In this document: positions 44,985-64,000 of the stretch, piece by piece | Numbering within the stretch: the first letter of the stretch is position 1 | Layout of the letters: every line of letters starts with the position of its first letter | Assembly (NCBI GenBank): GCA_964643405.1 | Contig: CAZXQD010000005.1 | Coordinates: 297 to 64,296, forward strand | DNA: 64,000 bases | Direction: 5' to 3' | Source of the DNA: an uncultured Hyphomonas sp. | Lineage (GTDB): Bacteria; Pseudomonadota; Alphaproteobacteria; Caulobacterales; Hyphomonadaceae | Program-made: the position numbers and the translations under genes | Notes under the pieces: model-generated | The model's database searches: none | What the model was told of the DNA's origin: nothing | The model's input: the letters and a program-made list of their open reading frames with translations, nothing else

Positions 44985-45372
44985 GACATAGGCTTCAAGC
45001 ACCTCCGATTCATGGTCCACTGCGCGCCAGAGATAGTGCGTCTACCCACGAATCTTCACGAAGACCTCGCCCAGGTGCCAGGGCCATTGCTTGACCCGAC
45101 GCATCGCCTCGGACCTCCGCTTACGGACCTTATCTGCGAAGTATGTCACAAAGCGATTTACCTAAAGACGGACGCTTTCGTGGCAGACATCTATGCCTCG
45201 CTCGTGCAGGAGGTCTTCGACATTTCGTAGCGAGATCGGAGATCGGACATACATCAGCGCGCCTAGCTTGATGATCTCGGGCGATGTCTTGAAGTAGCGG
45301 AACGTGTTCTTGCGCAAAATCCAAGGCTAAACGCCATCACCGGCCGCCTCATTATCCGGTTTCGCTGACATC
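44985..45372. mobile_element. Degenerate IS6-like element fragment
   Basis: Reads LHEDLAQVP...TDAFVADIYASLVQEVFDIS, which resembles from memory a segment of alphaproteobacterial IS6-type elements; ends ...GCTGACATC; 128 bp repeated at 49913. Confidence 0.5.
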
Positions 45373-48289: not shown

Positions 48290-48657
48290 GCTCGCGTCGG
48301 CGAAGAGGCTTCAGATCTTTCGCTTGATGACATCCTGCAAGATCTCGCGGTCGAGCGTCAGGTCTGCCACGATCCGCTTGAGCCGGGAGTTCTCCTCCTC
48401 CAGCTCACGCAGCCGCTTCATCTCCGACGGCAGCAGACCGCCATACTTTTTCTTCCAGTTGAAGTAGGTCGCCTGGCTGATCCCTGCCTTCCGGCAGACC
48501 TCCGCCACCGGCGGCCCGTCCTCTCCCTGCTTCAGGATGAATGCCTTCTGGGCATCCGTGAACTTCGAGGCCTTCATCGTCTTCGCTCCTTTCCAGCCAG
48601 GGGAAATCTACGCGAAAACTCCAGCCTCAAACGAGGAATTTTTTAGGGGGCAGAGCA
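48290..48657 (-). mobile_element. Truncated IS3-family element (left IR + OrfA; OrfB lost)
   Basis: Left end TGCTCTGCCCCCTAAAAAATTCCTCG at 48657; transposase-like sequence stops shortly after the OrfA stop. Confidence 0.85.
48311..48577 (-). CDS. IS3-family transposase OrfA
   Basis: MKASKFTDAQKAFILKQ...VCRKAGISQATYFNWKKKYGG...LEEENSRLKRIVADL. Confidence 0.92.
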   Translation of the reverse strand: MKASKFTDAQKAFILKQGEDGPPVAEVCRKAGISQATYFNWKKKYGGLLPSEMKRLRELEEENSRLKRIVADLTLDREILQDVIKRKI

Positions 48658-48752
48658 ATCGCGGCATTGTCCGAGAACCGGCCTGAATTTGCTCCGAGCA
48701 TAACTGCCGCGCTGGAAGAGGAATACAAATCAGCAATCAAGTAGCGTCTGGC

Positions 48753-48858
48753 TTGGGCCAGATCGGCTCTGATGATGGATTTCGGCGTCCGGCAGGGTCA
48801 CCTCAATCCTGTCAGTGGGTTGCATCATGCGCACCAGGCCGGACATCGCCGAAAACAG
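48753..48858 (+). repeat. Modular direct repeat, copy 1
   Basis: Ungapped 73/106 identity to 56608-56713; last 70 bp 49/70 identical to 49790-49859. Confidence 0.8.
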
Positions 48859-48875
48859 TCACATCGGCCTTCGAT

Positions 48876-49751
48876 TCACAGGCGCCAAGCGGGCGCATAC
48901 AACTTTCCTGCAGAAGCACGCACCTCTTCAAACAGCGCGCCGATGGCGTCGACGCTGGCTTCCAGCGCTTCAGGGTTTGATCCGATGTTCGACAAGATCG
49001 AACGCAGACGAGGGCCAAAGCTGGCCGGTGCGATCTTGAACTGATCAATCTCGGAAATAGACGTCTTGTCATTGACAAGATAGACGCGGTTCAGCGCGAA
49101 CAAGGTAAGCACCAGTGCCTGTGCAAAACGTGTCAGACATCCCGCTACCCCATGAACGTCGCCATTCGCAGCGAACTTGGGCGCGAACGCAGTCAAGCCG
49201 AACTCGACGCTCCATAGCCGGCTCTGAACAACGGCTTTGGCCAATGCTTCTGGCATAATCGACACCTTGGCTTTCAAAACCGACAGCGTGGATCGAGGAT
49301 CGTGAAGCGGGACTGCAATTGCTGCTTCTCCCAACAGAGTGGGACCGAAGAAGCCGAATGGCGGTTGTTGGTCGAAATCAATCTCGAACCGCCCTTCAAC
49401 TGCATCCTTGAATGTGATCTCAACTTTTTCGAGTGAGCGGTAGAGCAGATCGACTCTCTGTCTTTCGATCGTCAGCCACGCGCCACCATCCACTCAGCGC
49501 CCCCATTCACCGAAGCCCGACACAACAGGGTCCGGCGTATCATTGATGCGCGACGCTATTTGGCGAACTTGCTGAATAGAGAAGGCCGTTCCCGGCCAAT
49601 AGTAGAGCCCAATATCTATATCCGAGTCGGGGCGGGCGCGCCCCCGCGCGTGCGATCCGCCCAGGACGACTGCTTCCACACCCGTCACTTCTCTGAACTC
49701 GTCCACGACCCTTTTCAGGATCGCACCTTGGAAGGGTGTAAGCTGTTGCAT
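48876..49751 (-). pseudogene. Nucleotidyltransferase-domain protein interrupted by one in-frame TGA
   Basis: LGGSHARG, DSDIDIG; GEWGR*VDGGAWL with TGA at 49494-49496 where Trp is expected. Confidence 0.85.
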
Positions 49752-49789
49752 CGTGTAAGTATGTCGAGGTGCCGGCGGGAGCGCAATGA

Positions 49790-49859
49790 CCGGCAGGGTC
49801 AACCCAATCGTGCCATCCGGCGGCCCCACTGAAACTAGGCCGGACTTCGCCGACAATTG
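49790..49859 (+). repeat. Modular direct repeat, copy 2 (blocks B+C only)
   Basis: CCGGCAGGGTCAACCCAATCGTGCCA...AGGCCGGACTTCGCCGACAA; 49/70 vs copy 1, 46/70 vs copy 3. Confidence 0.75.
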
Positions 49860-49912
49860 ACGTTCGACGGCACTTTAGTGAATGCGTTTGCTCCCGCCAC
49901 TGATCGAAGACA

Positions 49913-50040
49913 GGACATACAGCAGCGCGCCTAGCTAGACGATCTCCAGCCAGATATTGAAGTAGAGAAACGGGTTCTGGCTCATATTCCTAGGCTAACC
50001 GCTCTGACCGGTCGCCTCAAGACCCGGTTCCGTTGACATC
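49913..50040 (+). repeat. Second copy of the IS6-like terminal segment
   Basis: Ungapped 101/128 identity to 45245-45372. Confidence 0.85.
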
Positions 50041-50434
50041 ACTCTTCACGCTTGTCTCTCTAGCCCATGTTTCAACTCAATAATCGGAGCTCGGACTAAC
50101 TCAAACACTGGACCGCTTCTCGGGAGGTAGACCAGACTAACTCTTCGGCAAAGCCGATCGTCGTGGCACTTGTGCGGCCGAGATGGGGATAGTGGCGGCG
50201 GTCCTGGTCCGTCAGTTCGGCGTCTCCGAAATGTCGAGTCACCGCTGAATTCTCACACCGAGCTAGTCCATGGTTCGCAATCGCGTGTAGAAGCCGCATG
50301 GCCGACGAATTTGCTGGGCCGTTGTTGAGGAGCAGTCGGCTTCACCTGGAGCCAAGGACGGCATGTGCGTGGTTCAAAAAACTTCGCCGGCAGGTTATCT
50401 CTCTATGCATCTTTGAGGACTGTGCGAGGGACCG

Positions 50435-51700
50435 GTGAAGCCGAAACAAGTGAAGTCAATTCCCTGGACGAAAATCGCATTGACAATTTCAACAGCGCTG
50501 ATCTGCGCCATTGCGCTTTATGGATTGTCTTACGCTACAAGAGATTTGACGCGCTTTGGTGATCTTGCCGATCAAGCTGTTGACCGCGCACTTGCTCTTT
50601 CTGCGGATAGCGACGAAATCCCTCTAGGGCCCCGCATCGTAGTAATAGATTTCAATGATCGGACGCTTTCCAAACTGGGAAACCCTCCGCTTATTCCGCC
50701 TTCAAGTCTCGCGCTCGCCATAGAACAAACCGTCGAAATGCAGCCTCGGGCAGTCATGATCGATATAGATTTGTCGTGGATCAGCGAAGCGGACGATGTG
50801 GAGCGATTGAATAACGCTCTAGAAAGCTCTGAGCGCGCAGGTGTAGTTTTGCTCCTCTCGAGAGTGCGGTATCCAAATGCTGTGGACGGACGGCGCGATG
50901 TTTTTCCGCCGACGGCGTTTGACTCCGCAGTTCGCGAAAGTGCCACTGCAAACTGGGTCAGCGCTGAAGCCATTCAGAGCGGTGATGGTATCGTTCGCTC
51001 AATAGCTCCTTTCGTTGAGGGATACGCCAATGGGCAGCTGGTTCGGGTCCCAGCCCCCCATTTGATTTTAGCGTTGAAAGGGGATGAAGCCGATCTAGCC
51101 GGTGCACGCGCGCGTTTTGGGGCGGGAGCGGATGAGAAAGTATTCTTGGCGGGTGCACAGAAAATCGACCTTTCGCAACGCGAAAATTCAATCGTGCGGT
51201 TCACTGACAGCTGGCCGCCGAAGTCAGGCCACCGTATCTCGGTTTTACCTGCCACGCCCTTGATTGAGCAGAGTGGACCAATTGATGATAGTTTGATCAA
51301 AGATTCGATTGTAGTGATCGGTTCGAGCGGCTCTCTTCAGGGCGATATGCACGAAACGCCTCTGGGACCAATGCCAGGTGCGTTCATCATAGCGAATGCA
51401 ATTGGGTCTTGGCAGGCTGGCGGGCCGCAGGTTGGCTGGTCTTTTCTGTTGGGTGGATTGATCGTTCTCGCCGGGGCGCTTGCGGTTTCGGCAATGGTCT
51501 CCCTGTCAATGGTGATTTGCCCGACGAGGTTTCGAGATAAACTGAAAAACTTCCTTCCCGGGACTGCCGTGACACTAATTTGGATCACCGCTCAGTTTAC
51601 AGGAGTAGCCGTCGATATAGGATGGCTGATGATCCTAGCCTATCCTGTAGCATGGATTGCGGTTGCTGCGTTTGGCCGAGCAAAGCAGAGCGAAGCATGA
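50435..51700 (+). CDS. CHASE2-domain membrane protein without cytoplasmic output domain
   Basis: RIVVIDFND, PRAVMIDID, DGIVR, VVIG, DMHETPLGPMPGAFIIANAI, then three TMs and stop. Confidence 0.85.
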   Translation: MKPKQVKSIPWTKIALTISTALICAIALYGLSYATRDLTRFGDLADQAVDRALALSADSDEIPLGPRIVVIDFNDRTLSKLGNPPLIPPSSLALAIEQTVEMQPRAVMIDIDLSWISEADDVERLNNALESSERAGVVLLLSRVRYPNAVDGRRDVFPPTAFDSAVRESATANWVSAEAIQSGDGIVRSIAPFVEGYANGQLVRVPAPHLILALKGDEADLAGARARFGAGADEKVFLAGAQKIDLSQRENSIVRFTDSWPPKSGHRISVLPATPLIEQSGPIDDSLIKDSIVVIGSSGSLQGDMHETPLGPMPGAFIIANAIGSWQAGGPQVGWSFLLGGLIVLAGALAVSAMVSLSMVICPTRFRDKLKNFLPGTAVTLIWITAQFTGVAVDIGWLMILAYPVAWIAVAAFGRAKQSEA

Positions 51701-52509
51701 AGTTTCTTGCGTTGTTTCTTCTTTTTTTGGGCTTCTCAGGTTCGGCTCTAGCCGAGCGATGCCACAGAATCCCGCCAGGGGTCATCGTCGACTTCAATGA
51801 GCCTTCCCATGAGTATCGGCTGGTGCGGAGCAAACGAGAGGAGCCGATCCGGTTTTTCATGCCGCTCATCTCCGGCGACAGGCTCAGTTTTTCGCATACC
51901 GGTTATCTTTCGGTTCAAACTGCAGACGGAACGGCAACTTGGTCGAGCCAATACTCCCCAATTTGCGTTGCGGAAGGCGAGCCCGTAACCTGGGCCGAGC
52001 GAATTTCGCAGCATATAACAGAACGTCTAACTCGCTCGCGGGACCGAGGTTATGTTCCAACGGTTACACGCGGTGAAGGTTCTTTGCGCGTCGCATTTGG
52101 CGATGCTGGTTCAGGTTATGCCGTGATTGGATCTGGAACGCGCAATCTGGCATTTTCTTGGCTCCAGGGCATCTCCCCCTTTGAAGTGCGCCTTATCGAC
52201 AAGGCCGGCGCTCTTGTCGTTGACGAGTCCCAAGTGCTTTCACGGACGTTGATTTTGGAGTCTCCCCGGGTCATTCCTGAAGGTGACTACATTCTCGAGA
52301 TAAGGGACAGTTCGGGAGATGATCCGATTGTCGTCTCCCTGAAAGCGATTTCACCCAATGGCCCTGTAACTGACGCTAGTTCCGCAATGGCGCTAGCTGG
52401 AGAGCTCGCAGCATCTGGACGGGAATTGGATGCCTTCTTCGTCCTCAGCCCCTACAGGTTTGAAAGCAAATCCGCTTCGGATTTCATGGATGTTCTCGCT
52501 GGTCGTTAA
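51697..52509 (+). CDS. Exported hypothetical protein, translationally coupled to the CHASE2 gene
   Basis: ATGA overlap; signal peptide MKFLALFLLFLGFSGSALA; central PTVTRG. Confidence 0.75.
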   Translation: MKFLALFLLFLGFSGSALAERCHRIPPGVIVDFNEPSHEYRLVRSKREEPIRFFMPLISGDRLSFSHTGYLSVQTADGTATWSSQYSPICVAEGEPVTWAERISQHITERLTRSRDRGYVPTVTRGEGSLRVAFGDAGSGYAVIGSGTRNLAFSWLQGISPFEVRLIDKAGALVVDESQVLSRTLILESPRVIPEGDYILEIRDSSGDDPIVVSLKAISPNGPVTDASSAMALAGELAASGRELDAFFVLSPYRFESKSASDFMDVLAGR

Positions 52510-52597
52510 GGCAGCCAGCGCCGCTGATTGAGCAGCATTGCTGTTTGGTCTCGGCCACAGCAGGGTTGTACTCTGACTCAAGCGTGGAAACACGCCT

Positions 52598-53605
52598 TCA
52601 AGGACTGACGAAACAGGACCTCACGTGGTCAAATGAGAACTCTCTTCCCTGTGGATTGAGAACACTAGCAGTTCTCGTTCTTGCTTCATGTCTTACGCTA
52701 ATGATTTCGATCGGGCGCCCACCACACTCGGCCGCAACGACCTTTTTTCCCACAGTGGTATGGACCTCTGCGGGTTCCCGGTCGCCTCGGATCAAAATCT
52801 GCTCTTCTGTAAGCCAGTCGACACGGGCCGAATAGCCGTCTGCCGAAATCGACAGTAAACGCTTAGCGCTAACGGCATCCCACAGTTCTAGGTGGTCACC
52901 TGTCAACCGGAGCAGCGTCCTGCCAGAAGGGCTGAGTGCCGCATGGGCGGTACGAGCAGCCCCAATGGACGAGTAGACGATGTTTCCGTTATCCCGGCAA
53001 ACGATGCCAGGCGTTGCCTTGTCGTTGAGCCTGAGAAGGAACGACGCACAGTCGCCTGTCACAATTCGCGCCCCTGTTCGCTCGATCCAAGGCACCCGCA
53101 TTTCGGTTATCACGCCGCCTGGGTAGCTAAATCCGAGGAGGCGCGCTGCGTTTTCTCCCGTCGGTGGGTCTGAAAAGAGAAGAAACTCCTCGATTTGACT
53201 TTGTCTGTCTGTGTAAGCCGCCTTAAGGTCCGCCTCTGACATTGGGGGGCGAAGTAGTTGGGCTCCCGTTTCTGAATATCCATCGTCAAAATCGAGCACG
53301 CAAACAGCTGCGGCACTGTCGACAACAAATCCAAATCGCATTTCAGTGTTAACGATCCCGATCTCTGCATTTCGGCAAAGCTTAGCGAGTTGGGAGAGAG
53401 CAGAACCCTTGTCAGCTGGGACGGCCGGGCGGGTTGGATCGACGGTGTTTGCCGCAAAATCTGCAAGCAGGCTTTGCCACTCTCCTTCATCTAAAGGAGC
53501 CTCGTAAGCAATTCTCGTCATTGCCTCCTCTCCTTCAGTTTGCGCAATTGCCGACTGGCCAAATAGCAGTGCGATGGAGATAATTGAAGCAAGACGGATT
53601 TTCAT
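52598..53605 (-). CDS. Exported hypothetical protein with WD40-like C-terminal blades
   Basis: Signal peptide ending AIA; AALSPSGRTLL...LELWDAVSAK. Confidence 0.7.
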   Translation of the reverse strand: MKIRLASIISIALLFGQSAIAQTEGEEAMTRIAYEAPLDEGEWQSLLADFAANTVDPTRPAVPADKGSALSQLAKLCRNAEIGIVNTEMRFGFVVDSAAAVCVLDFDDGYSETGAQLLRPPMSEADLKAAYTDRQSQIEEFLLFSDPPTGENAARLLGFSYPGGVITEMRVPWIERTGARIVTGDCASFLLRLNDKATPGIVCRDNGNIVYSSIGAARTAHAALSPSGRTLLRLTGDHLELWDAVSAKRLLSISADGYSARVDWLTEEQILIRGDREPAEVHTTVGKKVVAAECGGRPIEIISVRHEARTRTASVLNPQGREFSFDHVRSCFVSP

Positions 53606-53671
53606 ATGGTCGGCCTGAGCTCACCAATATCAGAGTACCTTATGAAAAAACATAAACGGCAGGACCTACTT

Positions 53672-56524
53672 ATGTCGATGCGCATTCTTATTTTGGTTCT
53701 GAGTGCCGTGATTGTTTCTTGCAGCTCGGAGAGCGCCAGAGCCGAGCAGGCAGCGGACGAGCGCAGGAGTCGGGATGCATGGTATGCAGCAACGAGTTTT
53801 TTTGATTTTCCGGAAGCTCGTGACGATGTTTCGCGCGGAGGCATCCAAGCGATACGAACCGAACTGGAGACTGTGTTCAAAGAGGGCAGCATCTCCAGTT
53901 CGGTTCGCCACAAAGCCTGGGAAATCCAGGAAGTGCTTGGTAGGCTTGCGTTCTATGCAGGAGAGTTTTCGCTCGCGGCGCGCGATTTCGAAGCGGCACT
54001 CGCATCGATTGGCCGGGATGCAGATGCCCAGAATCGCCGCCGGCTAGAGAACCGTCTTGCGCTCGCACTCGCGTTGGATGGCCGGTTCACAGAGTCTGAA
54101 GGCGTGTTCTCTAGGTTGGAGCCCTGTTCCGGAGGCGAATGCGATCTGCGTGAAGCGTACACAGGATGCGGAGGGCTCGGCTATAGTCTTGACAACCTGG
54201 ACCTTGACCGATTTGTGACGGAGAGCATTCCGCTCGGTGCTTGCGCCAGCCGCCGCCTGGTTGCTGCTTCTGAAAGTGCGATGGCTCAATCGCGCTCTGA
54301 TCTAGTCGAGCCTCTGCTCTACGCAGCGGACTTCGTCGCGCGGCCGATACCGATCGAAGAACCACGCGATGCCGGGTTGGCCCGGCTCGACGCCGCCGAC
54401 GCACTAGTCGATCTATTGCTTTTACAACGCCGGGGAAATGATGCTGCCGCGCTAATGGTTGATTTAGCGTCCGATCCGAATGTTTTGGACGCAGGCCCCG
54501 ATAAAGTCAGGAAACTGAACAGACGAATTGCCGCCAGCCGGTCTGACCAAGTCTCATCCAGGTTCCGCATTGCAACCTCGCGAGAGGATACGGCGGACGA
54601 ACTCAAAGACATCCAGTCCTTACTGTTCAAACTAGCAGGTTTCGGCGGTAGTTTTGGTCCCGCTAGCTCCAGAAACTCAATGGGGTACTTTCGTCGCGCG
54701 GCTCAGACGAGCGCAGCCCTAAGTGACTTCGAGGCTGCATTGGATTACGGATATCAGGCAATTTTGGGCACAGTCTCCTTTACGACGCCAGGGCTGCCAC
54801 TGCGCGTCGATATGGGGCCGACACCTCCGGACTGTCCGCCCGGAAACGCTGAACTGCCGAGATGCAACGCATGGTATGACGAGATTGTTGAACTATACGC
54901 GAGCGAAGAGCTATCAGCCGTATTGAGCGAATACGCCGTCTACCTCAGTTTGGCTGGTCGCCCGGGAGACGCTCTGGACACGGAAGACCGGGCCCAGGTC
55001 ATTTTCCGCAACTGGCTTCGCAGAAACTGGAGCAGTATGCGAGTGTTGTCGTCCGGTCTGCTCTCACGATCTGATCTTGATTCTGAGCGGTTGTATCAGT
55101 TGAGGCCGCTAGTCACAGGCCAGCCTGACAGGGCGAAACGCGCGTTCGCCCTTGGGTTCGAAATCATTCAAAATGTGCAATTCAGTCGGGTAGATGCAGC
55201 GCTTCGGCAATCCGTCGCGAGGCAGTCGCTTGAGGACGACGCGACACGTCTGCTGATTCAGCAACGGCAAGTGCTGTCACAGCAAAGCGATACCTCGGTT
55301 GACTTGAGCGAGGCGCGCCGCGGTGAAATCAGACGCAGAATTGCGGAGATCGACAGCCGGTTAACAGTTCCGTTCTCTGAGATAGAACGAAAGGCAGGAT
55401 TTCTTCCTCTTGATGCCGACAGTGCAAGCTCGCTGCTTGCTCCGGATGAAGCGCTAATGGTTATTGCCTCATTGCCCGACCGGACCGAAGTCGTGGTTGT
55501 CAGCCGCACAGAGCGCATTTGGTACGCATCTGATATTTCTGCCGCAGATCTTTCAAAAAAGGTGGCTGCGCTGAGAGCGCACGTTGATGGCGACGTTCCG
55601 TACAACGCAGACGTCGCTTACGAAGTCTACAGTTCTGTCTTCCGGCCCGCCGAAAGCGCAATCGGCAAGAAACGCCTGCTGGTCGCGGTTTCCGGACCTC
55701 TATCCGCGCTGCCGCTCTCAATGCTTGTCACTGAACGCCCCGTCGGGAATACCTACCGAGCAAAACTGAAGAACGCCCGCTGGCTAGCGCAAAGGCACGC
55801 CGTTCTTTACCTTCCCTCAGTGGCAGCGCTCAGTTCGCTAAGGCGCGACAAGGAAGGAAGTCGCCACACCAGTTTCATCGGGTTTGGAGATCCAATCCTG
55901 GACACGATCGAGCCTCCACAAGTCGAAGTAAGGCGCGAAACCGGTTTGGCGCGCCTTCAATTTGCAGCGTCTGAGATCAGACGCCTTGCGGCGGTCATGA
56001 AGGCACCAGAAAGCCAAGTCTATCTAGGAGCTGATGCCACAAAGCAGAAGTTTGTAGAACTGGACCTGTCGAGCGTGTCAGTGATCGCATTTGCCACTCA
56101 CGCGCTCAAGGCAGCCGGCCCAACTCGACCGGAACCCGGTCTCATTTTCAGCCGAACGGCGGGAGCGGACGATACGTTCTTGGCAGCTTCTGAGGTTGCC
56201 TCTCTTCGGATTGGCGCCGACCTCGTAATACTGTCCGCATGCAACACTGCGGGGGAAGATGGATCTGGCGGAGAAGCACTTTCCGGATTGACACAATCCT
56301 TTCTTTTCGCGGGCGCGCGAAGCGTTGTAGCGACTCACTGGTCGGTACTCGACAAAGCTGCAGCGGATATCATGCCAACAGTGCTGGAACCGAATATCGC
56401 AGTTCTTCCAAGCATGATTGCTGACCAGTTGCAGCGTGCTGTGCTTGATCATTTGGCTGCCGCGGAGTCTGAGACTGAACTGGAACCACGATACTGGGGC
56501 GCATTTGTCGTGGTGGGCGGCTGA
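53672..56524 (+). CDS. TPR-CHAT (caspase-like cysteine protease), probable lipoprotein
   Basis: LSAVIVSC lipobox-like leader; TPR-like helices; GPLSALP, GFGDP, FATHA (His), LVILSACNT (Cys), FLFAGARSVVATHWSV, PRYWGAFVVVG. Confidence 0.9.
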   Translation: MSMRILILVLSAVIVSCSSESARAEQAADERRSRDAWYAATSFFDFPEARDDVSRGGIQAIRTELETVFKEGSISSSVRHKAWEIQEVLGRLAFYAGEFSLAARDFEAALASIGRDADAQNRRRLENRLALALALDGRFTESEGVFSRLEPCSGGECDLREAYTGCGGLGYSLDNLDLDRFVTESIPLGACASRRLVAASESAMAQSRSDLVEPLLYAADFVARPIPIEEPRDAGLARLDAADALVDLLLLQRRGNDAAALMVDLASDPNVLDAGPDKVRKLNRRIAASRSDQVSSRFRIATSREDTADELKDIQSLLFKLAGFGGSFGPASSRNSMGYFRRAAQTSAALSDFEAALDYGYQAILGTVSFTTPGLPLRVDMGPTPPDCPPGNAELPRCNAWYDEIVELYASEELSAVLSEYAVYLSLAGRPGDALDTEDRAQVIFRNWLRRNWSSMRVLSSGLLSRSDLDSERLYQLRPLVTGQPDRAKRAFALGFEIIQNVQFSRVDAALRQSVARQSLEDDATRLLIQQRQVLSQQSDTSVDLSEARRGEIRRRIAEIDSRLTVPFSEIERKAGFLPLDADSASSLLAPDEALMVIASLPDRTEVVVVSRTERIWYASDISAADLSKKVAALRAHVDGDVPYNADVAYEVYSSVFRPAESAIGKKRLLVAVSGPLSALPLSMLVTERPVGNTYRAKLKNARWLAQRHAVLYLPSVAALSSLRRDKEGSRHTSFIGFGDPILDTIEPPQVEVRRETGLARLQFAASEIRRLAAVMKAPESQVYLGADATKQKFVELDLSSVSVIAFATHALKAAGPTRPEPGLIFSRTAGADDTFLAASEVASLRIGADLVILSACNTAGEDGSGGEALSGLTQSFLFAGARSVVATHWSVLDKAAADIMPTVLEPNIAVLPSMIADQLQRAVLDHLAAAESETELEPRYWGAFVVVGG

Positions 56525-56607
56525 TCACGTGGAAGAGTTACTGAGATTCGAACTTTCGGTGCCTTGGCAAAAATCAGCCATCCGCATTGAGTTGTTCAAT
56601 GACCGAA

Positions 56608-56713
56608 TTGGGCCAGGTCGGCTCTGATCGTCACGTTACGCGATCGGCGGGATCGGTCCAATCGTGTCATTCGACCATCTCACGCGCACCGGGCCGCAGT
56701 TCGCCGATAACGG
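56608..56713 (+). repeat. Modular direct repeat, copy 3
   Basis: TTGGGCCAGGTCGGCTCTGAT (20/21 vs copy 1) plus blocks B and C at identical spacing. Confidence 0.8.
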
Positions 56714-56821
56714 CCGTTACCAGTCTGAGTCCCTTTCTAAAATTTAGAGAAGAAGCCGAGCATGTATCTAGGGGTTATTTGCTCCTAATACGCGCGCCTA
56801 CGATTTTCTAACGACGACGCT

Positions 56822-57097
56822 TCAGCCCCGGTACTTGCCAAAGAGGTCCACAAGCTCAGAAAACTTCTGCCTCTGGCTCTCGGCATCACCGTCCCGAATC
56901 GCCTCTTCCACGCAATGCGCGGCATGGTTCTTCAGGAGTTCGTCTTCGACCTTTCCGAGCGCCGCCTTGATCGCCTGAACCTGCGTCAGGATGTCGATAC
57001 AGTAGCGGCCTTCCTCGACCATGCCGGAGACACCTCGCACCTGACCCTCGATTCTCCTGAGCCGGGTTACAACGGATTTAGGTGGAGATTGATGCAT
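56822..57097 (-). CDS. csoR: CsoR/RcnR-family metal-sensing repressor
   Basis: RLRRIEGQVRGV, RYCIDIL, HAAHCV (C-H-C ligands). Confidence 0.9.
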   Translation of the reverse strand: MHQSPPKSVVTRLRRIEGQVRGVSGMVEEGRYCIDILTQVQAIKAALGKVEDELLKNHAAHCVEEAIRDGDAESQRQKFSELVDLFGKYRG

Positions 57098-57126
57098 TTG
57101 ACATATACCTCTATGGGGTATACATA
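57098..57126. promoter_or_regulatory. CsoR-type operator within a sigma70-like promoter
   Basis: TTGACA at 57098; TATACCTCTATGGGGTATA at 57104-57122. Confidence 0.8.
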
Positions 57127-57155
57127 ACCGTTCAGTCCAAATTGGTCAACGCTTC

Positions 57156-57578
57156 ATGATGGCTTCGCTTCGCAGCGCGTTTATTGCCCTGACCCTGCTC
57201 GTGCTGGGCGCAGGGCACGCAGCGTGTGCCTGCGTAGCGGTCGCAGGCGCGCTGGAGGCACCAGACATTGCCGTTTCAGCTCCTTCAGCCCACAGCCACC
57301 ATGCGGCTGCAAATGATCCGTCACAGGACCAGCACTGCAATGGGGGCTCTGAAGTTCCGGAGCATGACTGCACCCATTGTGTGACCGCTGCACTGCCTGC
57401 TGACGCATCGCTGAAGGCGGTCAGTGCCACTCCTGCGCACGTCGCAATCCTCCCGCCGGTTCCGGAACTGAAATCAGTCAGCCTGTTGAGGCTCGCCGAC
57501 CTGAATACAGAACCAGACGCAGGGCATCCTCGAACTCGACCGTCTCCAGTCACACTGAAAGTCCGCCTGCAGATTTGA
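57156..57578 (+). CDS. Small Cys/His-rich exported protein (CopL/DUF2946-like)
   Basis: Signal/TM, ACAC, HSHH, HDCTHC, C-terminal RPSP; first gene of the cop cluster. Confidence 0.6.
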   Translation: MMASLRSAFIALTLLVLGAGHAACACVAVAGALEAPDIAVSAPSAHSHHAAANDPSQDQHCNGGSEVPEHDCTHCVTAALPADASLKAVSATPAHVAILPPVPELKSVSLLRLADLNTEPDAGHPRTRPSPVTLKVRLQI

Positions 57579-57691
57579 TCCTGTGATGAACCCTGCGCGC
57601 GCCTCTCCGGCAGCGCAGAATGTTTCATCCATTCTAGCGTGCGCGTCTTTGCGCCCGCTTCCCGGCCGATCAATTGCAGGACAACGTTCCA

Positions 57692-58339
57692 ATGAAACTC
57701 TCCCACTCAATTCTCGCCGCTGCCGTTGTGTTTGCAGCTTCGCCCGCCTTTGCGCTTGAAGGCGACAGTTCCGCTGCCGCGATGCAGCATTCTGATCATT
57801 GCGGCCTGCCCATGGGCGAAGGCACGGTGGCCGGACTCGACGTCAAGGCATCCAAGGCCACGATAGATCACATGCCCATCGCCGCCCTCAACTGGGACGC
57901 CATGACGATGGACTTCAAGGCTGCCAAGGGCATTGACCTGTCCGCCTTCGCAGCCGGTGACCGCGTCCATTTCCTTCTGACTGAGGACACAAAATCGAAG
58001 TCTTACAGGATTGAAGCGATGTGTTCGCTCGATGCCCCGAAAGGCCTGCATGACGCCTGCATGGGCAAGATGCATGAGACGGCCATGACGCTCACGGCAG
58101 CCAGCGGCAAATCCTGCGATATGGGCGGGATGGATCATGGCGCAATGCCAGGAATGGACCACACCGGCATGAAGAGCATGGATCATGGCAATATGGATCA
58201 CATGAAGCACGGCGAGATGAAACCGGCCAATGCCGAGACCATGAACTGCAAGGAGATGTGCGCGATGATGAAGAAGTCATCCGATACTCCGCCGGCAGAC
58301 GAAAAGCCTGCTGCTGTGATGGACCATAGCCAGCACTGA
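57692..58339 (+). CDS. CusF-like copper-binding protein with Met/His/Cys-rich tail
   Basis: Signal peptide; IDHMPIAALNWDAMTMDF; MDH repeats. Confidence 0.82.
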   Translation: MKLSHSILAAAVVFAASPAFALEGDSSAAAMQHSDHCGLPMGEGTVAGLDVKASKATIDHMPIAALNWDAMTMDFKAAKGIDLSAFAAGDRVHFLLTEDTKSKSYRIEAMCSLDAPKGLHDACMGKMHETAMTLTAASGKSCDMGGMDHGAMPGMDHTGMKSMDHGNMDHMKHGEMKPANAETMNCKEMCAMMKKSSDTPPADEKPAAVMDHSQH

Positions 58340-58408
58340 TCCGGTCGCCTGACGCGCAGCGCGCTTCCGGCGCGCGCGGCAGGCGTTCCTCACACAAGGT
58401 TCGAACCC

Positions 58409-60301
58409 ATGCTCACACGACGCAATCTACTCCGCACAGCCGCCGCCGGTGGTCTCTTCGCGGCATCCAGCGCCCTGCTCCCGGCTTGGGCACGCAGCGC
58501 CGCTGCCGGCAACAAGGGAATCTTTGAAGTCTCCGGTAACGCCTTTGACCTCACCGTCGGCCACAGCGCCGTCGAGATTGGCGGCCGCTCCGGCCATGCC
58601 ATCACCATCAACGGAACGCTGCCCGGACCACTCATCCGGTTCCGCGAAGGCGAAAAGGTGAGCCTCAAGGTCAACAACACACTCGACGAGGACACATCGA
58701 TCCACTGGCACGGGCTTCTCGTGCCGTTTCACATGGACGGGGTGCCCGGAGTTTCCTTCCCTGGCATCAAGCCGAAGTCCACGTTCACTTATGAGTTCGC
58801 GGTCCCGCAGAGCGGTACATACTGGTACCATTCGCACTCGGGTTTGCAGGAGCAAATGGGCCATTATGGTCCTCTGATCATTGACCCCGCAGGCAAGGAT
58901 CCCGTCAGTTATGACCGGGAGTATGTGCTCGTCCTGTCAGACTGGACGTTCGAACATCCGCACAAGGTATTTGCGCGCCTCAAGAAGGATGCGGCGGTCT
59001 ACAACTTTCAGCAGCGCACCGTTGGCGATTTCCTCAAGGACGCCAGGGAGAATGGCTTCGGAAAGACATTTGCTGACCGGGCCTCCTGGGGCGCCATGCG
59101 CATGTCTCCGACCGATATCTCGGATGTAACTGCATCCGTCTACTCTTACCTCATCAATGGTCATGCGACCTCAGACAACTGGACCGCGATATTCAATTCC
59201 GGCGAGCGTGTGCGGCTACGGATCATCAACGCGTCAGCCATGACAATCTTCAATTTCCGGATTCCGGGACTGCCGATGACGGTGGTAGCCGCTGACGGGC
59301 TCAATGTCCAACCAGTGGAGACCGACGAGTTCCAGATCGGGGTTGCAGAAACCTATGACGTGATCGTCAGTCCGACCCGCGCCCGGCCCTTTGCCCTCGT
59401 CGCGGAATCGATCGATCGGTCAGGACAGGTTGTTGCGACGCTGGCCCCTGAAGCCGGACTGGTAGCAACCGCTCCCCTGCTTCGCGAGCGCCCAACGCTC
59501 ACGCACCGCGACATGGGCATGGACATGGCGTCGATGGATCACGGTGCGATGGGTCATGGCGCGATGGCCGAGATGGACCATGGCAGCATGGCAGGAATGG
59601 ACCACAGCGCAATGCCCGGCATGGATCATAGCGCCATGGCGAAGACCGATACCGTCCCGCAAGACCATGACCACAAGATGGGTGTGGGTGTCGACAACGT
59701 CGCGATGGTTCAGGTAAGCCGCATCGACGAGCCGGGACTCGGTCTCGAGAATGTGCCGCACCGGGCGCTGCGGTATTCGCAGCTCAGGAGCCTCACACCC
59801 AACCCCGACACACGGGCGCCAGGCCGCGAAATGGAGATCCATCTCACGGGCAACATGGAACGCTACATGTGGTCCTTCGACGGCGTGAAGCTGAGTGAGG
59901 TAACGGGTCCGATCATTTTTCATGAAGGCGAACGCCTGCGCGTGACACTCGTCAACGATACGATGATGACGCATCCCATCCATTTGCACGGCATGTTCTT
60001 CGATCTCGTGGTTGGCGATACCGATCACAAGCCGCGCAAGCACACTGTGAACGTCAAACCGGCGGAGCGGCTGTCCTTTGATGTCACGGCAGACCATGTG
60101 GGAGACTGGGCTTTCCACTGCCACCTCCTCTTCCACATGCATGCCGGCATGATGCAGGTTGTCTCGGTCGTGCCGCGCAGTAAGGCCGCGATGTCTGATG
60201 ACGAGCACAAAGGACACAAGCCTTCCATTGCTCCGTCAGCGGAAGACAGGGCAAAGACCGAAACCGGGATGCCGGGTATGCAGCACGAAGGACATCGCTG
60301 A
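58409..60301 (+). CDS. copA: Copper-resistance multicopper oxidase
   Basis: TRRNLL Tat signal; HWHG, WYHSH, HPIHLHG, HCHLLFHM; MDH-rich insert. Confidence 0.96.
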   Translation: MLTRRNLLRTAAAGGLFAASSALLPAWARSAAAGNKGIFEVSGNAFDLTVGHSAVEIGGRSGHAITINGTLPGPLIRFREGEKVSLKVNNTLDEDTSIHWHGLLVPFHMDGVPGVSFPGIKPKSTFTYEFAVPQSGTYWYHSHSGLQEQMGHYGPLIIDPAGKDPVSYDREYVLVLSDWTFEHPHKVFARLKKDAAVYNFQQRTVGDFLKDARENGFGKTFADRASWGAMRMSPTDISDVTASVYSYLINGHATSDNWTAIFNSGERVRLRIINASAMTIFNFRIPGLPMTVVAADGLNVQPVETDEFQIGVAETYDVIVSPTRARPFALVAESIDRSGQVVATLAPEAGLVATAPLLRERPTLTHRDMGMDMASMDHGAMGHGAMAEMDHGSMAGMDHSAMPGMDHSAMAKTDTVPQDHDHKMGVGVDNVAMVQVSRIDEPGLGLENVPHRALRYSQLRSLTPNPDTRAPGREMEIHLTGNMERYMWSFDGVKLSEVTGPIIFHEGERLRVTLVNDTMMTHPIHLHGMFFDLVVGDTDHKPRKHTVNVKPAERLSFDVTADHVGDWAFHCHLLFHMHAGMMQVVSVVPRSKAAMSDDEHKGHKPSIAPSAEDRAKTETGMPGMQHEGHR

Positions 60302-61098
60302 TGAACAGCAGACATTTTTGCTCGGCCTTCGTATTGCTGTCCTTGGCGACCGCAGTTCCCGCCATCGCGCAGGAGCCGCCCGTACCCGGATCGCAGGCCG
60401 CAGCCTACTGGGACGCGGATGAGTTCAAGGCCTCTCAGGACGCGCTGAAAAAGGAACATGGCGGAGGAACAAACTTCATGATCCTAGCCGACCGGTTCGA
60501 ATACCAGTCCGGCGAGGGATCCCCCGCTCTTCTTCTGGAAGGTCAGGGCTGGTGGGGTACGGATGAAAGCCGGCTCTGGATAAAGTCCGAGATCGACTAC
60601 GATCTGGATGCCAGCAGTTTCGAAGAGGCTGAGGTACAGGCGCTCTGGTCCAAGCCCATCGCTCGGTACTTCGACCTGCAGGCAGGTGTTCGACATGATT
60701 TCGAACCGGGCCCATCCCGCACCTACGCCGCTCTCGGCGTTCAGGGGCTTGCTCCCTACTGGTTCGAAGTCGATGGCGTTTTCTTCCTGAGCGAAGAAGG
60801 CGATCTCTCCGCCCGTGTGGAAGCGGAGTATGAGTTCCTGCTGACACAGCGCCTCGTCCTGCAACCCCGCACAGAGCTGAACTTCGCGATGCAGGACGTG
60901 CCGGAACTTGAAACCGGCGCCGGACTTTCGACGGCCGAGCTTGGCCTGCGCCTGCGGTATGAGTTCGACCGTCAGTTCGCCCCCTATGTCGGCGTCAACT
61001 GGAAAGCCTCGACCGGCGACACCGCAGACTTCGCCCGCGCCCGCGGTGAGGACGCCGAAACCCTCTCCTTCGTCACCGGGATCAGGCTCTGGTTCTGA
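60301..61098 (+). CDS. copB: Copper resistance outer membrane protein B
   Basis: DRFEY, GVQGLAPYWFE, LTQRLVLQP, GLRLRYE, GIRLWF. Confidence 0.93.
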   Translation: MNSRHFCSAFVLLSLATAVPAIAQEPPVPGSQAAAYWDADEFKASQDALKKEHGGGTNFMILADRFEYQSGEGSPALLLEGQGWWGTDESRLWIKSEIDYDLDASSFEEAEVQALWSKPIARYFDLQAGVRHDFEPGPSRTYAALGVQGLAPYWFEVDGVFFLSEEGDLSARVEAEYEFLLTQRLVLQPRTELNFAMQDVPELETGAGLSTAELGLRLRYEFDRQFAPYVGVNWKASTGDTADFARARGEDAETLSFVTGIRLWF

Positions 61099-61140
61099 AC
61101 CGTATCCAACTTTAGCTCAACGTCCGCGAAAGGACACAAA

Positions 61141-61494
61141 ATGCCCCGTTCAAAAGTGATTGCAGCCACACTTCTGGCCTTCGCCCTCTCCGCCGCGCCT
61201 GCGCTCGCGCATGTCAGTGTCAAGACGACCAACATTGCAGACGCCGCCGTCATAGACGTGTTACCGGACGACTTCACGTTCAGCTTCAGCCAGCCAGTCG
61301 GTCTGATCGCGTTCTCGGTGAAAACCGAAGCAGGAGAGGCCGTCGAGATTGGCTTCACACCTCCAAAGGCACCGGCTGCCACATTCACAGTTCCGCTACC
61401 TGATCTGGCGCCGGGTCTCTACACTGTGGAGTGGCGCACGATGTCAAAAGATGGTCATCCGATGACCGGCAAATCGACCTTCGAACTGAAGTAG
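61141..61494 (+). CDS. copC: Copper chaperone CopC
   Basis: Mature N-terminal His after ALA; GLYTVEWRTMSKDGH. Confidence 0.9.
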   Translation: MPRSKVIAATLLAFALSAAPALAHVSVKTTNIADAAVIDVLPDDFTFSFSQPVGLIAFSVKTEAGEAVEIGFTPPKAPAATFTVPLPDLAPGLYTVEWRTMSKDGHPMTGKSTFELK

Positions 61495-61506
61495 GGGGCC
61501 GCCGCC

Positions 61507-62337
61507 ATGCCCCTGCTGGACGCCGCCAATATCGTAACCAAGGTATTGCTCTACGCAGTCAGCCTCGGAGCGATCGGGGCGGCGCTCCACGGGGCGCTCG
61601 GCCTGATGACGAACCGCCGTGCATATTTCCGGCTCGCAGGTCTGGTGACCGTTGCAGCGGCTCTGCGGCTCGTCATTCTGAACGCTCAGATGGGCGGAAG
61701 TCTTGGCGCGGCTTTCTCGACTGAACAGTTCGGTTGGACCTGGGCCGCTGGCGGGCGCCCTGCCCTCGCGCTGCTCGTCGGCGCGGGCTTTCTCGTTGTG
61801 GCCGGCCTTATACGTCACCGGGTCCTTCTGGTGCCCGCCGCCATCAGCATCAGCGCAAGCTTTGCCCTTACAGGACATTCAGCGGGGCTGGCGGCGCCGG
61901 GCTTGGCGCCATGGATCGTGGCGGGCCATCTTCTGATCGCAGGCTTCTGGTTTGCCGCGCCGGCGACTCTTTGGCCCCGGTCCGGGATGCAGGACGCTGA
62001 TGTTCTGGCCCGTACCGAGGCCTTCAGCCGGGTGGCACGCGTTATCGTGCCCCTGGTGTTCCTCTCAGGCATCTATCTGTTCTGGCGTATCAATGGCGGG
62101 TTCTCCGGCCTGCTCAGCTCCGGATACGGACAATTGCTTGCCTCCAAGCTTCTGGCGGCAACGCTGCTTCTCGGGCTCGGGGCGGTCAATCTGATGTTCG
62201 TCACGCGCCGGCTGGCAGCGCAGCCCGCCAGAGGGCGAGCCGCCTTGCGCGCGACACTGCGCGCCGAGGCTGTTCTGTTCGCCGCGATCGTCATCATTAT
62301 TGCCGCAGCCACAACCGTTTCTGGTCCAACTACCTGA
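61507..62337 (+). CDS. copD: CopD-family membrane protein
   Basis: ALTGHS, GHLLIAGFW, FSRVA, YGQLLASKL. Confidence 0.87.
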   Translation: MPLLDAANIVTKVLLYAVSLGAIGAALHGALGLMTNRRAYFRLAGLVTVAAALRLVILNAQMGGSLGAAFSTEQFGWTWAAGGRPALALLVGAGFLVVAGLIRHRVLLVPAAISISASFALTGHSAGLAAPGLAPWIVAGHLLIAGFWFAAPATLWPRSGMQDADVLARTEAFSRVARVIVPLVFLSGIYLFWRINGGFSGLLSSGYGQLLASKLLAATLLLGLGAVNLMFVTRRLAAQPARGRAALRATLRAEAVLFAAIVIIIAAATTVSGPTT

Positions 62338-62347
62338 GGAGCCTAAA

Positions 62348-62827
62348 ATGAAACCTGTCTTGTTCAGCCTCGCCGCGGCCACCCTGATCGCATTTTCTGA
62401 CCCGGCGCTTGCCGATGAGGCGACGAGCCCGTCAGCGGCGAAGTCACCCATCGAGACTGTTGTTGCCTTCGGCGCAGCGCTGGAAGCAGGTGACGAGGCG
62501 GCGCTCGTGAGCCTGCTGGCCGCTGATGTGCAGATTGCAGAAAGCGGCGGCATCGAGCGGTCGCTCGAAGAATACCGCTCACACCACATGGCTGCTGACA
62601 TCACGTTTTCTAAAGCGGTTGAGACAACCGTCCTCGACCGGCAGGTCTTTGAAGGCGGCGGCCTCGTGACCATTCTGACTGAGTCCGTGTCGAAAGGAAC
62701 GTTTCGGAACAAGCCGGTCAACAGCCGTCTGATGGAGACAATGGTGCTGCAGGAAACCGGCGGCGTGTGGAAGATCGTCCACATTCACTGGTCCTCGGCC
62801 AGCCTTGCCACCGATCATGACCATTGA
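62348..62827 (+). CDS. Exported NTF2-like (DUF4440/SnoaL) protein
   Basis: Signal peptide; EYRSHHMAAD, ETMVL, WKIVHIHWSS, C-terminal HDH. Confidence 0.8.
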   Translation: MKPVLFSLAAATLIAFSDPALADEATSPSAAKSPIETVVAFGAALEAGDEAALVSLLAADVQIAESGGIERSLEEYRSHHMAADITFSKAVETTVLDRQVFEGGGLVTILTESVSKGTFRNKPVNSRLMETMVLQETGGVWKIVHIHWSSASLATDHDH

Positions 62828-62844
62828 AATGCTGGGACACAACC

Positions 62845-62880
62845 GAAGACCGCATTTGCGCGGTCTTCTGTTCTGTTTCT
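62845..62880 (+). terminator. Intrinsic terminator
   Basis: GAAGACCGC-ATTTGC-GCGGTCTTC stem followed by TGTTCTGTTTCT. Confidence 0.7.
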
Positions 62881-62915
62881 GAAATCAGACAGAGACGGGC
62901 ACAAAGCTGGAAATA

Positions 62916-62960
62916 TACCCCTATGGGGTAATTGACGGATACCCCTTAGGGGTATAGTTA
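62916..62960 (+). promoter_or_regulatory. Two CsoR-type operators flanking a -35 box
   Basis: TACCCCTATGGGGTA (62916), TTGACG (62932), ATACCCCTTAGGGGTAT (62939). Confidence 0.85.
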
Positions 62961-62992
62961 CCTCGCTAGCTAACGTCTCCAGGAGCTCCAGC

Positions 62993-64000
62993 ATGTCCTC
63001 GACCCCAAACTCGATTTCACCTGATCAAAAAGCCAAACGGGACCCCGTTTGCGGGATGACGCCGAAAGCAGACAGTCCGCACCGACTGGTGCACCAGGGC
63101 GCCGAGATCCTGTTCTGCAGCGCGGGTTGCAAAGCCAAGTTCGAGGCCGATCCCTCCGCCTACCCTGTCGCGGAAGAAGCACGCACCGTCCCGGAACCCC
63201 ACGCGCATGGCCATTCAGGTCATGGCGCCGGTTGTCATCATCACGCGGCAACACCCGCACCCAAGACAGCGGCGCCCGGAAGCCAGTGGACCTGCCCCAT
63301 GCACCCGGAAATCCTCCGAGATGGTCCGGGAGACTGCCCGATCTGTGGTATGGCGCTGGAGCCGTTGACCCCAAGCGCAAGCGACGGTCCCAATCCTGAG
63401 CTGCGCGACATGAAGCGGCGTTTTGTGTTCGGGCTCGTTCTGTCCCTGCCGTTGCTGGCTATTGAAATGGGCGGGCACGTCTTCGGCGTCGACCGCTTGA
63501 TTCCGCCGACCATCAATCCCTGGATCCAGATGGCGCTGGCGACGCCTGTCGTGCTCTGGGCGGGCTGGCCTTTCTTTGCTCGGGGCGTCGCCTCGGTCAG
63601 GAACCGCAGCCTCAACATGTTCTCGCTGATCGCGCTCGGCACGGGTGCAGCCTGGATCTACAGCATGGTGGCAGCGATTGCGCCGGATCTGTTCCCCGCC
63701 GAGCTGCGTTCGGCGCATGGCACCGTGCCGGTCTACTTTGAAGCCGCTGCAGTCATCATCACTTTAGTCCTGCTCGGCCAGGTACTGGAACTTCAGGCCC
63801 GTGAGGCAACGGGCGGCGCCATCCGTGCGCTCCTTGACCTTGCCCCGAAAACCGCGCGCCGCATCCATGGCGATGGCAGCGAAGAAGATGTGCCGCTGGA
63901 GACGGTCGTCGCCGGTGACAGGCTGCGCGTGCGCCCTGGAGAAAAGGTACCGGCTGACGGTGTCGTCCTTGAAGGACGCTCCTCCATCGACGAGTCGATG
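62993..64000 (+). CDS. Cu(+)/Ag(+) P1B-type ATPase with YHS-like domain (runs off window end)
   Basis: Not in the ORF track. Manual translation: DPVCGM, FCSAGC, WTCPMHP, CPICGMALEP, LNMFSLI, YFEAAA, RPGEKVPADG, IDESM; AGGAG RBS. Confidence 0.93.
   Translation, partial: MSSTPNSISPDQKAKRDPVCGMTPKADSPHRLVHQGAEILFCSAGCKAKFEADPSAYPVAEEARTVPEPHAHGHSGHGAGCHHHAATPAPKTAAPGSQWTCPMHPEILRDGPGDCPICGMALEPLTPSASDGPNPELRDMKRRFVFGLVLSLPLLAIEMGGHVFGVDRLIPPTINPWIQMALATPVVLWAGWPFFARGVASVRNRSLNMFSLIALGTGAAWIYSMVAAIAPDLFPAELRSAHGTVPVYFEAAAVIITLVLLGQVLELQAREATGGAIRALLDLAPKTARRIHGDGSEEDVPLETVVAGDRLRVRPGEKVPADGVVLEGRSSIDESM

Follow-up and report, generated by a model that had tools for sequence, protein, structure and literature searches.

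Two-site repeats as joints of exchangeable gene modules in Hyphomonas, with a small tyrosine recombinase as putative catalyst

The dif (pdif) modules of Acinetobacter plasmids and the integrons are the described systems closest to the one considered here. In the portions of two reports drawn on (PMC10132070, PMC6449649), dif modules are bounded by inversely oriented sites of the arm–6 bp–arm type, the same module recurs in many contexts, toxin–antitoxin and resistance-type genes are among the cargo, and insertion sequences (IS) lie beside the sites. Integrons and clusters of attC sites lacking integron-integrases (CALINs) build arrays that run in one direction and consist mainly of single accessory genes with stop codons near the site, and some arrays have no enzyme nearby. 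Comparable features are found in a repeat family of an uncultured Hyphomonas sp., noticed in a 64,000-nt stretch of contig CAZXQD010000005.1 (this whole stretch is called the window), where three same-strand copies lie at 48753–48858, 49790–49859 and 56608–56713, as the original prediction had stated. Judged from comparisons of genomes, each repeat is a joint between mobile genes and holds two hexameric exchange points, O1 and O2, on either side of an 85-nt filler. This is a real site-specific gene-module system, a variant of the dif-module and integron kind, the catalyst of which is likely but putative; its layout has more in common with alternating dif modules than with integron cassettes. 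Unlike dif modules, it has no XerD arm, its 13-nt arms are degenerate, its two overlaps are fixed and distinct, one of the module classes consists almost entirely of 85-nt fillers of fixed length and a candidate dedicated recombinase is itself a module; it is moreover chromosomal and genus-restricted. What this analysis adds is that two keys alternate, that the filler forms a module and that the enzyme gene stands in the filler slot. No description of such a system was found in the open-access literature, supplements and subscription journals lying outside that scope.

The copies in the window are not due to chance, as follows from a search of the source genome (238 contigs) with a profile of the three, which returned family matches with E values as low as 6e-19. 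Copies 1 and 3 align without gaps and share 73 of 106 positions, while copy 2 aligns only from the conserved block B onward. The source genome contains 24 copies on 11 contigs, mainly in same-strand runs between accessory genes and many of them at contig ends. Below, G000 designates this genome, other G numbers genomes of the genus, C numbers contigs and L numbers extracted loci. When the scan was extended to related genomes, as the original prediction had proposed, with a model built from 18 copies, 47 of the 80 genomes of the genus had matches (at least five in 21 of them, 62 in G023) and the other 33 had none. Outside the genus, blastn found the repeat in none of 24 genomes of other families, five of 150 genomes of the wider class have a single weak match each (E 3e-5 or worse), and the plasmid and phage collections searched gave no match.

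The anatomy of the element was established on 222 distinct full copies from array loci of 18 genomes, loci that were picked by model match and are no census. The element measures ~122 nt (model columns 8–130) and is composed of a 13-nt left (L) arm, the hexamer GGGCCA (O1), the 85-nt filler, the hexamer TCGCCG (O2) and a 13-nt right (R) arm. The copies first described were thus real, but their 106 nt were too short, since 13-nt arms lie on both sides. The outer arms are degenerate and the inner arms are imperfect palindromes; palindromic block B, with a 5-nt centre, is the centre of the filler, 45/46 nt from each site. Exact GGGCCA is present in 138 and exact TCGCCG in 184 of the 222 copies. 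Modular blocks at fixed spacing were borne out, the A-to-B offset being constant in 201 of 224 copies and the B-to-C offset in 202 of 224 from the loci of the 18 genomes. Average identity among copies is 0.60, and they are no more alike within a genome (0.585) than between genomes (0.592), unlike attC sets as described in the portion consulted of a preprint (bioRxiv 10.1101/2022.02.06.479319). The G+C content of the region is 53–58%, against 63% for the genome. A structured RNA, one of the earlier suggestions, is not supported: no pairing covariation was found among 162 copies (fold z −0.78/−0.92; RNAalifold covariation term −0.19), the B stem only weakly exceeds shuffled sequences, and the 64-kb window has no match in Rfam and no tRNA. 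Since pairing covariation is lacking and mean identity is 0.60, we read the element as double-stranded DNA.

The joints were located by comparing copies that have one flank in common. Where the left flank is shared (27 pairs, 18 independent ends), L-arm identity is 0.87 against a background of 0.41, whereas filler identity in the same pairs is 0.63 against 0.59 and never reaches 0.9. Where the right flank is shared (13 pairs, 12 ends), R-arm identity is 0.91 against 0.44 and that of the filler 0.62. Changepoints were placed in pairs with flank identity of at least 0.8 and full columns: for 14 of 20 pairs with a common left flank the interval contains O1, and for 9 of 12 with a common right flank it contains O2. 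Conversely, three filler pairs are 94–100% identical with both flanks different (limits near columns 19–21 and 117–118), and such a middle between unrelated flanks marks the 85 nt as a separate module; in one further pair, left flank and filler are common (99%) and the switch occurs at O2. By these alignments, left cargo, filler and right cargo are three mutually independent units, and the outer 13-nt arms move with the cargo. That the repeats are recombination sites flanking swappable accessory genes, as originally proposed, is supported by this cross-genome comparison of modules. The cargo open reading frames (ORFs) run along the repeat in 48 cases and opposite to it in 39 (p 0.39), median ORF cover of the cargo is 75%, and 18 of the 48 and 10 of the 39 stop within 24 nt of the module end. 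Complementarity between both arms of one cargo module does not exceed the family level (0.378 versus 0.380 at random).

Sites also occur singly. A scan for arm–gap–arm arrangements was most enriched at a gap of 6 nt (49 matches versus 10 in shuffled sequences, at 14 bits or more), and the best matches contain GGGCCA or TCGCCG though the gap was unscored. The 1.0 Mb of array loci hold 43 lone sites, against 0–1 after shuffling, 37 on the same strand as the repeats and 3 on the opposite one. The distinct lone sites number 42; repeats lie exclusively downstream of 21 of the 28 O2 and exclusively upstream of 13 of the 14 O1. Arrays thus begin with a lone O2 and end with a lone O1, and between these, cargo modules (O2..O1) alternate with filler modules (O1..O2). 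One cargo end starts at the same TCGCCG in five genomes, after a full repeat in two and after a lone site in three. Nine lone O2 sites have a right flank in common with full repeats and one lone O1 has a left flank in common with them; the reverse was never seen. At the pip locus, G089 and G093 carry a single filler-free O2..O1 module and G001 a chain, while G030, the closest relative, is empty.

The original prediction held that no recombinase lies in the window, which is correct, and that one acts in trans; relatives provide a candidate that would act from elsewhere. Of the tyrosine recombinases in repeat-rich genomes, one protein of 214 amino acids (aa) sits inside arrays. At 85% identity or more it is present in 10 of the 21 genomes with at least five repeats (6 of them with the whole gene) versus 3 of the 59 others (Fisher p 4e-5, which overstates the association because the genomes are kin). 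Co-occurrence with one recombinase, earlier named as a check, is seen in part of the relatives but not in the source assembly, where the gene was not found. Inspection by eye revealed on the 5′ side of the gene, in five genomes, an O1-like hexamer, 30 nt and a B-like palindrome, and on its 3′ side, in 8 of 10 cases with an intact 3′ end, B, 30–31 nt and TCGCC(G/A). By this comparison the recombinase gene occupies a filler slot with the filler's own site geometry. The cargo that stands behind the recombinase module in G023 has a plain filler before it in G000, with 94% flank identity. Residues R65, K93, H162, R165, H188 and Y197 are invariant across 30 homologues. The predicted model, with a predicted local distance difference test (pLDDT) value of 78.5, corresponds to the catalytic domain alone and has a fold like the catalytic domains of XerA, XerH and Cre; the protein matches PF00589 with 64 bits, TIGR02249 with 18.4 bits against a cut-off of 265, and NF007371 (NCBIfam) weakly. 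The enzyme family extends across Proteobacteria, with about 60–70% identity among the matches listed, and is found in 223 plasmid records and at least 532 stretches of the genome collection. By association and shared geometry, the 214-aa recombinase is likely the catalyst for these sites.

FimB and FimE, as commonly described, are similar in having about 200 aa and no core-binding domain and in offering a precedent for accessory sites; they differ in that they invert one promoter switch, while here the sites bound exchangeable modules. In the part of PMC8138268 drawn on, core-binding and catalytic domains are treated as present in every tyrosine recombinase member and no named simple tyrosine recombinase subgroup is described as catalytic-domain-only; its appendix or datasets may list the family.

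Other genes were considered as catalyst and rejected. A 377-aa ORF beside the C8 array of the source genome (C8:142–1275, L001) has relatives only in G009 and G034, both without a blastn match to the repeat. It matches nothing in Pfam or NCBIfam and has only three relatives in a protein search; the C8 array opens with an IS3-type end that the stop of this ORF overlaps, and the motifs of the ORF are, we presume, like those of Rep_trans rolling-circle initiators. A 294-aa integrase near a G071 array (L063; TIGR02249 177 bits, under the cut-off) has no repeat within its locus, and none of the 13 tyrosine recombinase matches in the source genome has a repeat in the extracted locus. The filler class also includes a longer module (L093, L126, L037, L044, L151) made of O1, A, B, a ParD-family antitoxin gene and a gene for a 115-aa partner, which has no Pfam match and which we take to be ParE-like; in some genomes the recombinase gene comes next. 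The recombinase of G102 and G071 is separated from O1 by a ParD-family gene and another small gene.

The reading put forward, to which we give a probability of about two in three, is that O1/O2 pairs around the 85-nt filler build chains of alternating modules that are moved by O1×O1 or O2×O2 exchange, likely through the 214-aa recombinase. Pairs of cargo and filler would enter and leave through either kind of exchange with alternation preserved, and both kinds acting over time would separate a cargo from both of its fillers. Each site would be an arm–6 bp–arm target as in tyrosine recombinases. The reverse complement of O1 agrees with O2 at 4 of 6 positions and the cargo arms are inverted; O1 and O2 would be inverted copies of one site with mismatches at 2 of 6 overlap positions. 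Most tyrosine recombinases obey a rule of overlap homology, and these two mismatches would therefore block inversion and O1×O2 deletion. Block B would be an accessory binding site shared by O1 and O2, which would account for the fixed spacing, and the enzyme gene itself would move as a filler-class module. With somewhat less than an even chance, the system would amount to a third shuffling platform beside integrons and dif modules, with a widespread recombinase of ~200 aa, double-stranded sites and two overlap keys, in which the filler would serve only for alternation and as one shared accessory site, genes would move singly, and the enzyme gene, sometimes with a toxin–antitoxin pair, would travel as a filler-class module.

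Several observations weigh against this reading. The recombinase was not found in the 238 contigs of the source assembly by tblastn, Pfam or profile searches; either the arrays there are orphans, or the assembly has a gap where the gene lies. G066 has 19 repeats and no recombinase, only 6 of the 21 repeat-rich genomes carry the whole gene, and G074 carries it with no repeat match. In 6 of the 20 pairs with a common left flank and 3 of the 12 with a common right flank, the changepoint lies outside the hexamer, sometimes close to block B; copy 1 of the window compared with C147 switches after column 96, and breaks within conserved blocks cannot be located exactly. Four of the 28 lone O2 sites have an upstream repeat (one of them the recombinase module's own end). 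The reading does not account for the arrival of the first O2..O1 platform, G030 having no arms at pip. Block B may in part be a hairpin or a terminator. No circle or excision joint was seen in the contigs of four runs, contigs being prone to lose rare forms. Lastly, two adjacent repeats at L159:2171–2537 (G002 C313) have a 100% identical filler, for which pairwise exchange gives no explanation; the pair encloses a gene-less piece of ~150 nt ending in an IS3-type end and is either a true duplication or an assembly artefact.

An alternative that we regard as improbable makes the recombinase module a minimal integrative element and the filler its non-autonomous miniature, both inserted by O1×O2 at chance arm–6 bp–arm targets with mismatch-tolerant overlaps, as in Tn916, cargo becoming mobile secondarily when two insertions flank a gene. 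It agrees with the equal ends and spacing of filler and recombinase module, with near-identical fillers between unrelated flanks, with arms of low conservation that in many cases overlap or adjoin stop codons (18/48 and 10/39 ORFs ending within 24 nt of the module end), and with a decayed cargo-to-cargo joint on G000 C8 at the place of a full repeat in G023. However, lone sites are found at array ends with fixed polarity and not inside arrays, lone O2 match right flanks of full repeats (nine) and lone O1 a left flank (one) but never the reverse, and the 128 adjacent pairs are without tandem fillers. A double-stranded circle of ~91 nt is also hard to form. The idea that lone sites are empty products of O1×O2 deletion was dropped following the test of site order and is retained only within this alternative. 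Elements such as Tn916 and CTnDOT and miniature inverted-repeat transposable elements (MITEs) do resemble the present system in having ends with non-identical overlaps and a long autonomous beside a short non-coding form with common ends. They differ from it since here there is no arm-binding domain, there are no conjugation genes, the overlaps are fixed and not target-derived, and target duplication is not the rule (adjacent fillers are 0.60 identical).

Two further explanations dispense with the small enzyme, and we consider both very unlikely. Host XerC/XerD, or another chromosomal recombinase, could act on the sites and leave the small recombinase a passenger with similar sites. Repeat-rich G000 and G066 do lack the small enzyme yet possess XerC and XerD, and dif modules, of the same alternating logic, use XerC/D according to the portions of PMC10132070 and PMC6449649 drawn on. 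Against this, the XerD-arm consensus (from the consulted part of PMC10132070; the genus's own dif site was not determined) is present with at most three mismatches in only 9 of 222 copies, and matches of XerC/D level are genus-wide, yet 33 of 80 genomes are repeat-free. As remote in our estimate is the view that these are decayed dispersed repeats whose neighbours are shuffled, with no dedicated enzyme, as conserved blocks undergo homologous recombination or gene conversion. Any crossover in the most conserved blocks, where the breakpoints lie, would stay hidden, and some exchanges do occur near B or between blocks; but copies are only 60% identical on average, lone 32-nt sites with the hexamer alone in common mark the same module ends, and shuffling of this kind predicts neither fixed polarity nor the same geometry around a recombinase gene.

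The integron-like reading of the original prediction is not supported when taken in the strict sense. The attC test relied on the R″/R′ box pattern typical of these sites, and R boxes at both ends were found in 0 of 222 copies on either strand, in agreement with the earlier remark that the repeats resemble no obvious attC sites. Unlike integrons, the system shows no single-strand fold signal, has two cut points per repeat, a cassette here not being a gene plus one repeat, and has ORFs in both directions without bias (48/39), and its enzyme differs from IntI by its 18 bits against the cut-off of 265 and by having the length of a catalytic domain only (214 aa). A CRISPR-like or target-duplicating array was rejected, adjacent fillers being 0.60 identical versus 0.59 between genomes, with 1 of 128 adjacent pairs identical. 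Repetitive extragenic palindromic (REP) hairpins of the kind linked to REP-associated tyrosine transposases (RAYTs) carry a GTAG tag; they were rejected because only 19 of 222 copies have this tag near an end, a judgement by tag in which RAYT genes were not searched.

The preferred reading of two keyed exchange points offers a testable mechanism for very common, unassigned tiny ‘integrase’ genes and for the build-up of accessory genes at hot spots in an alphaproteobacterial genus. With the exchange points narrowed to two hexamers, a short assay suffices and, if the reading is true, a 214-aa recombinase with two overlap-keyed sites would be a compact tool.

In the window, the array is preceded by an IS3-family remnant (48311–48657, minus strand; orfA, with PF01527 at 48311–48577, and the left end) that lies inside the cargo module upstream of copy 1. 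Identity with the uninterrupted module end of G023 begins at 48658, and in the contigs of run X7 a loose end at 48658 continues in the manner of G023. The right end of this upstream module (48658–48754, plus strand, as are all repeat parts below), with its L arm at 48742–48754, is 99% identical over 103 nt to L166 (G023 C21), where the homologous cargo end precedes another filler. Copy 1 comprises O1 (GGGCCA, 48755–48760), where left-flank identity stops, the 85-nt filler (48761–48845, block B at 48791–48813), the identity of which is at background in pairs with either flank common, and O2 (TCGCCG, 48846–48851), followed by the R arm of the next cargo module (segment 48846–48864), arm and flank being common to C147. 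The gene of cargo 1 (48876–49751, minus strand) encodes a nucleotidyltransferase/DUF4037 protein (PF01909, PF18765, PF13228). The description of one gene tightly enclosed by copies 1 and 2, 17 bp past its stop and 38 bp before its ATG, is correct as to the distances, but the gene is interrupted at codon 86 by an in-frame TGA (49494–49496), identical in the contigs of the X1 and X2 runs, each a possible source sample. Intact homologues with 84–86% identity are found among other neighbours at C147 and G023 C26.

Copy 2 is a truncated repeat (49788–49865) with B at 49792–49814, O2 at 49847–49852 and the R arm at 49853–49865, delimited by the site scan and by the homologous module end in L028 and C147. 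Its lack of block A, noted earlier, is accounted for by a 41-nt deletion relative to the homologous module end in G023, which removed O1 as well; with O1 deleted, the cargo 1 module would be fused to the next filler. No promoter-like site was found around copies 1 and 2. Cargo 2 starts with short mobile-element remnants (49902–50135, no strand assigned) with a 78% match to window positions 45234–45372, two adjoining pieces of which recur in 14 other genomes of the genus. It continues with a CHASE2-domain protein of 421 aa (50435–51700, plus strand; PF05226), ORFs of 270 aa (51697–52509, plus strand) and 335 aa (52598–53605, minus strand) without family match, and a CHAT-domain protein of up to 972 aa (53606–56524, plus strand; PF12770). 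The gene part of this 6.8-kb CHASE2–CHAT module was not found in the other 79 genomes of the genus searched, so its mobility would follow solely from the module ends; the site scan found no additional strong site in its interior. Copy 3 has its L arm at 56597–56609, O1 at 56610–56615, the filler at 56616–56700 (B at 56646–56668, by model alignment) and O2 at 56701–56706. With its R arm, this O2 begins a gene-less cargo module of ~65 nt, recognized by homology, that runs to what, from its position, would be a decayed O1 at 56772–56777; homologues in L156 (G096) and L140 (G102) close with an intact GGGCCA, and this site is the probable end of the window's array.

Array surroundings were also recorded. 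In ten cases, arrays start with an IS3-type end (as we take these ends to be) exactly 43 nt left of the L arm, in three more within two columns of this position, and three mirror cases lie on the right; such ends could seed arrays at new places. A second opening family to the left of lone O2 (L121, L133, L137, L149, L031, L032, L041, L170, L165, L002) has its own B-like palindrome, which begins 55 nt ahead of O2 as it does in fillers but has a variable centre of 7 nt. The 3′ end of pip (L277–L305) is an insertion hot spot between convergent genes across the genus and contains nothing, palindromic REP-like inserts, IS ends, single O2..O1 modules or arrays; in at least eight genomes, O1 lies 27–34 nt from the pip stop. 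Array ends at L029:3188, L036:13447 and G000 C136 adjoin copies of the 3′ end of an apparent tRNA-synthetase gene, presumably argS, which suggests an island attachment site that gathers arrays. In L037 (G001 C14), the array stands right behind relaxase-, TraG- and CopG-like genes, recognized by eye, and thus within the cargo region of a conjugative element, by which arrays may spread. In the source genome, one contig carries two copies of a cargo end longer than 500 nt together with the L arm (C173:205–762 and 3756–4299), and the sequence continues at the start of C83, a sign of recent duplication or of a collapsed assembly. Beyond the array, window positions 56822–64000 hold a copper-resistance cluster with a CsoR-like repressor, CusF, a multicopper oxidase, CopB and CopC, and with a heavy-metal ATPase beyond the window; a paralogue with 80–83% identity is present on G000 C18, and a fourth repeat follows the cluster at C5:65931.

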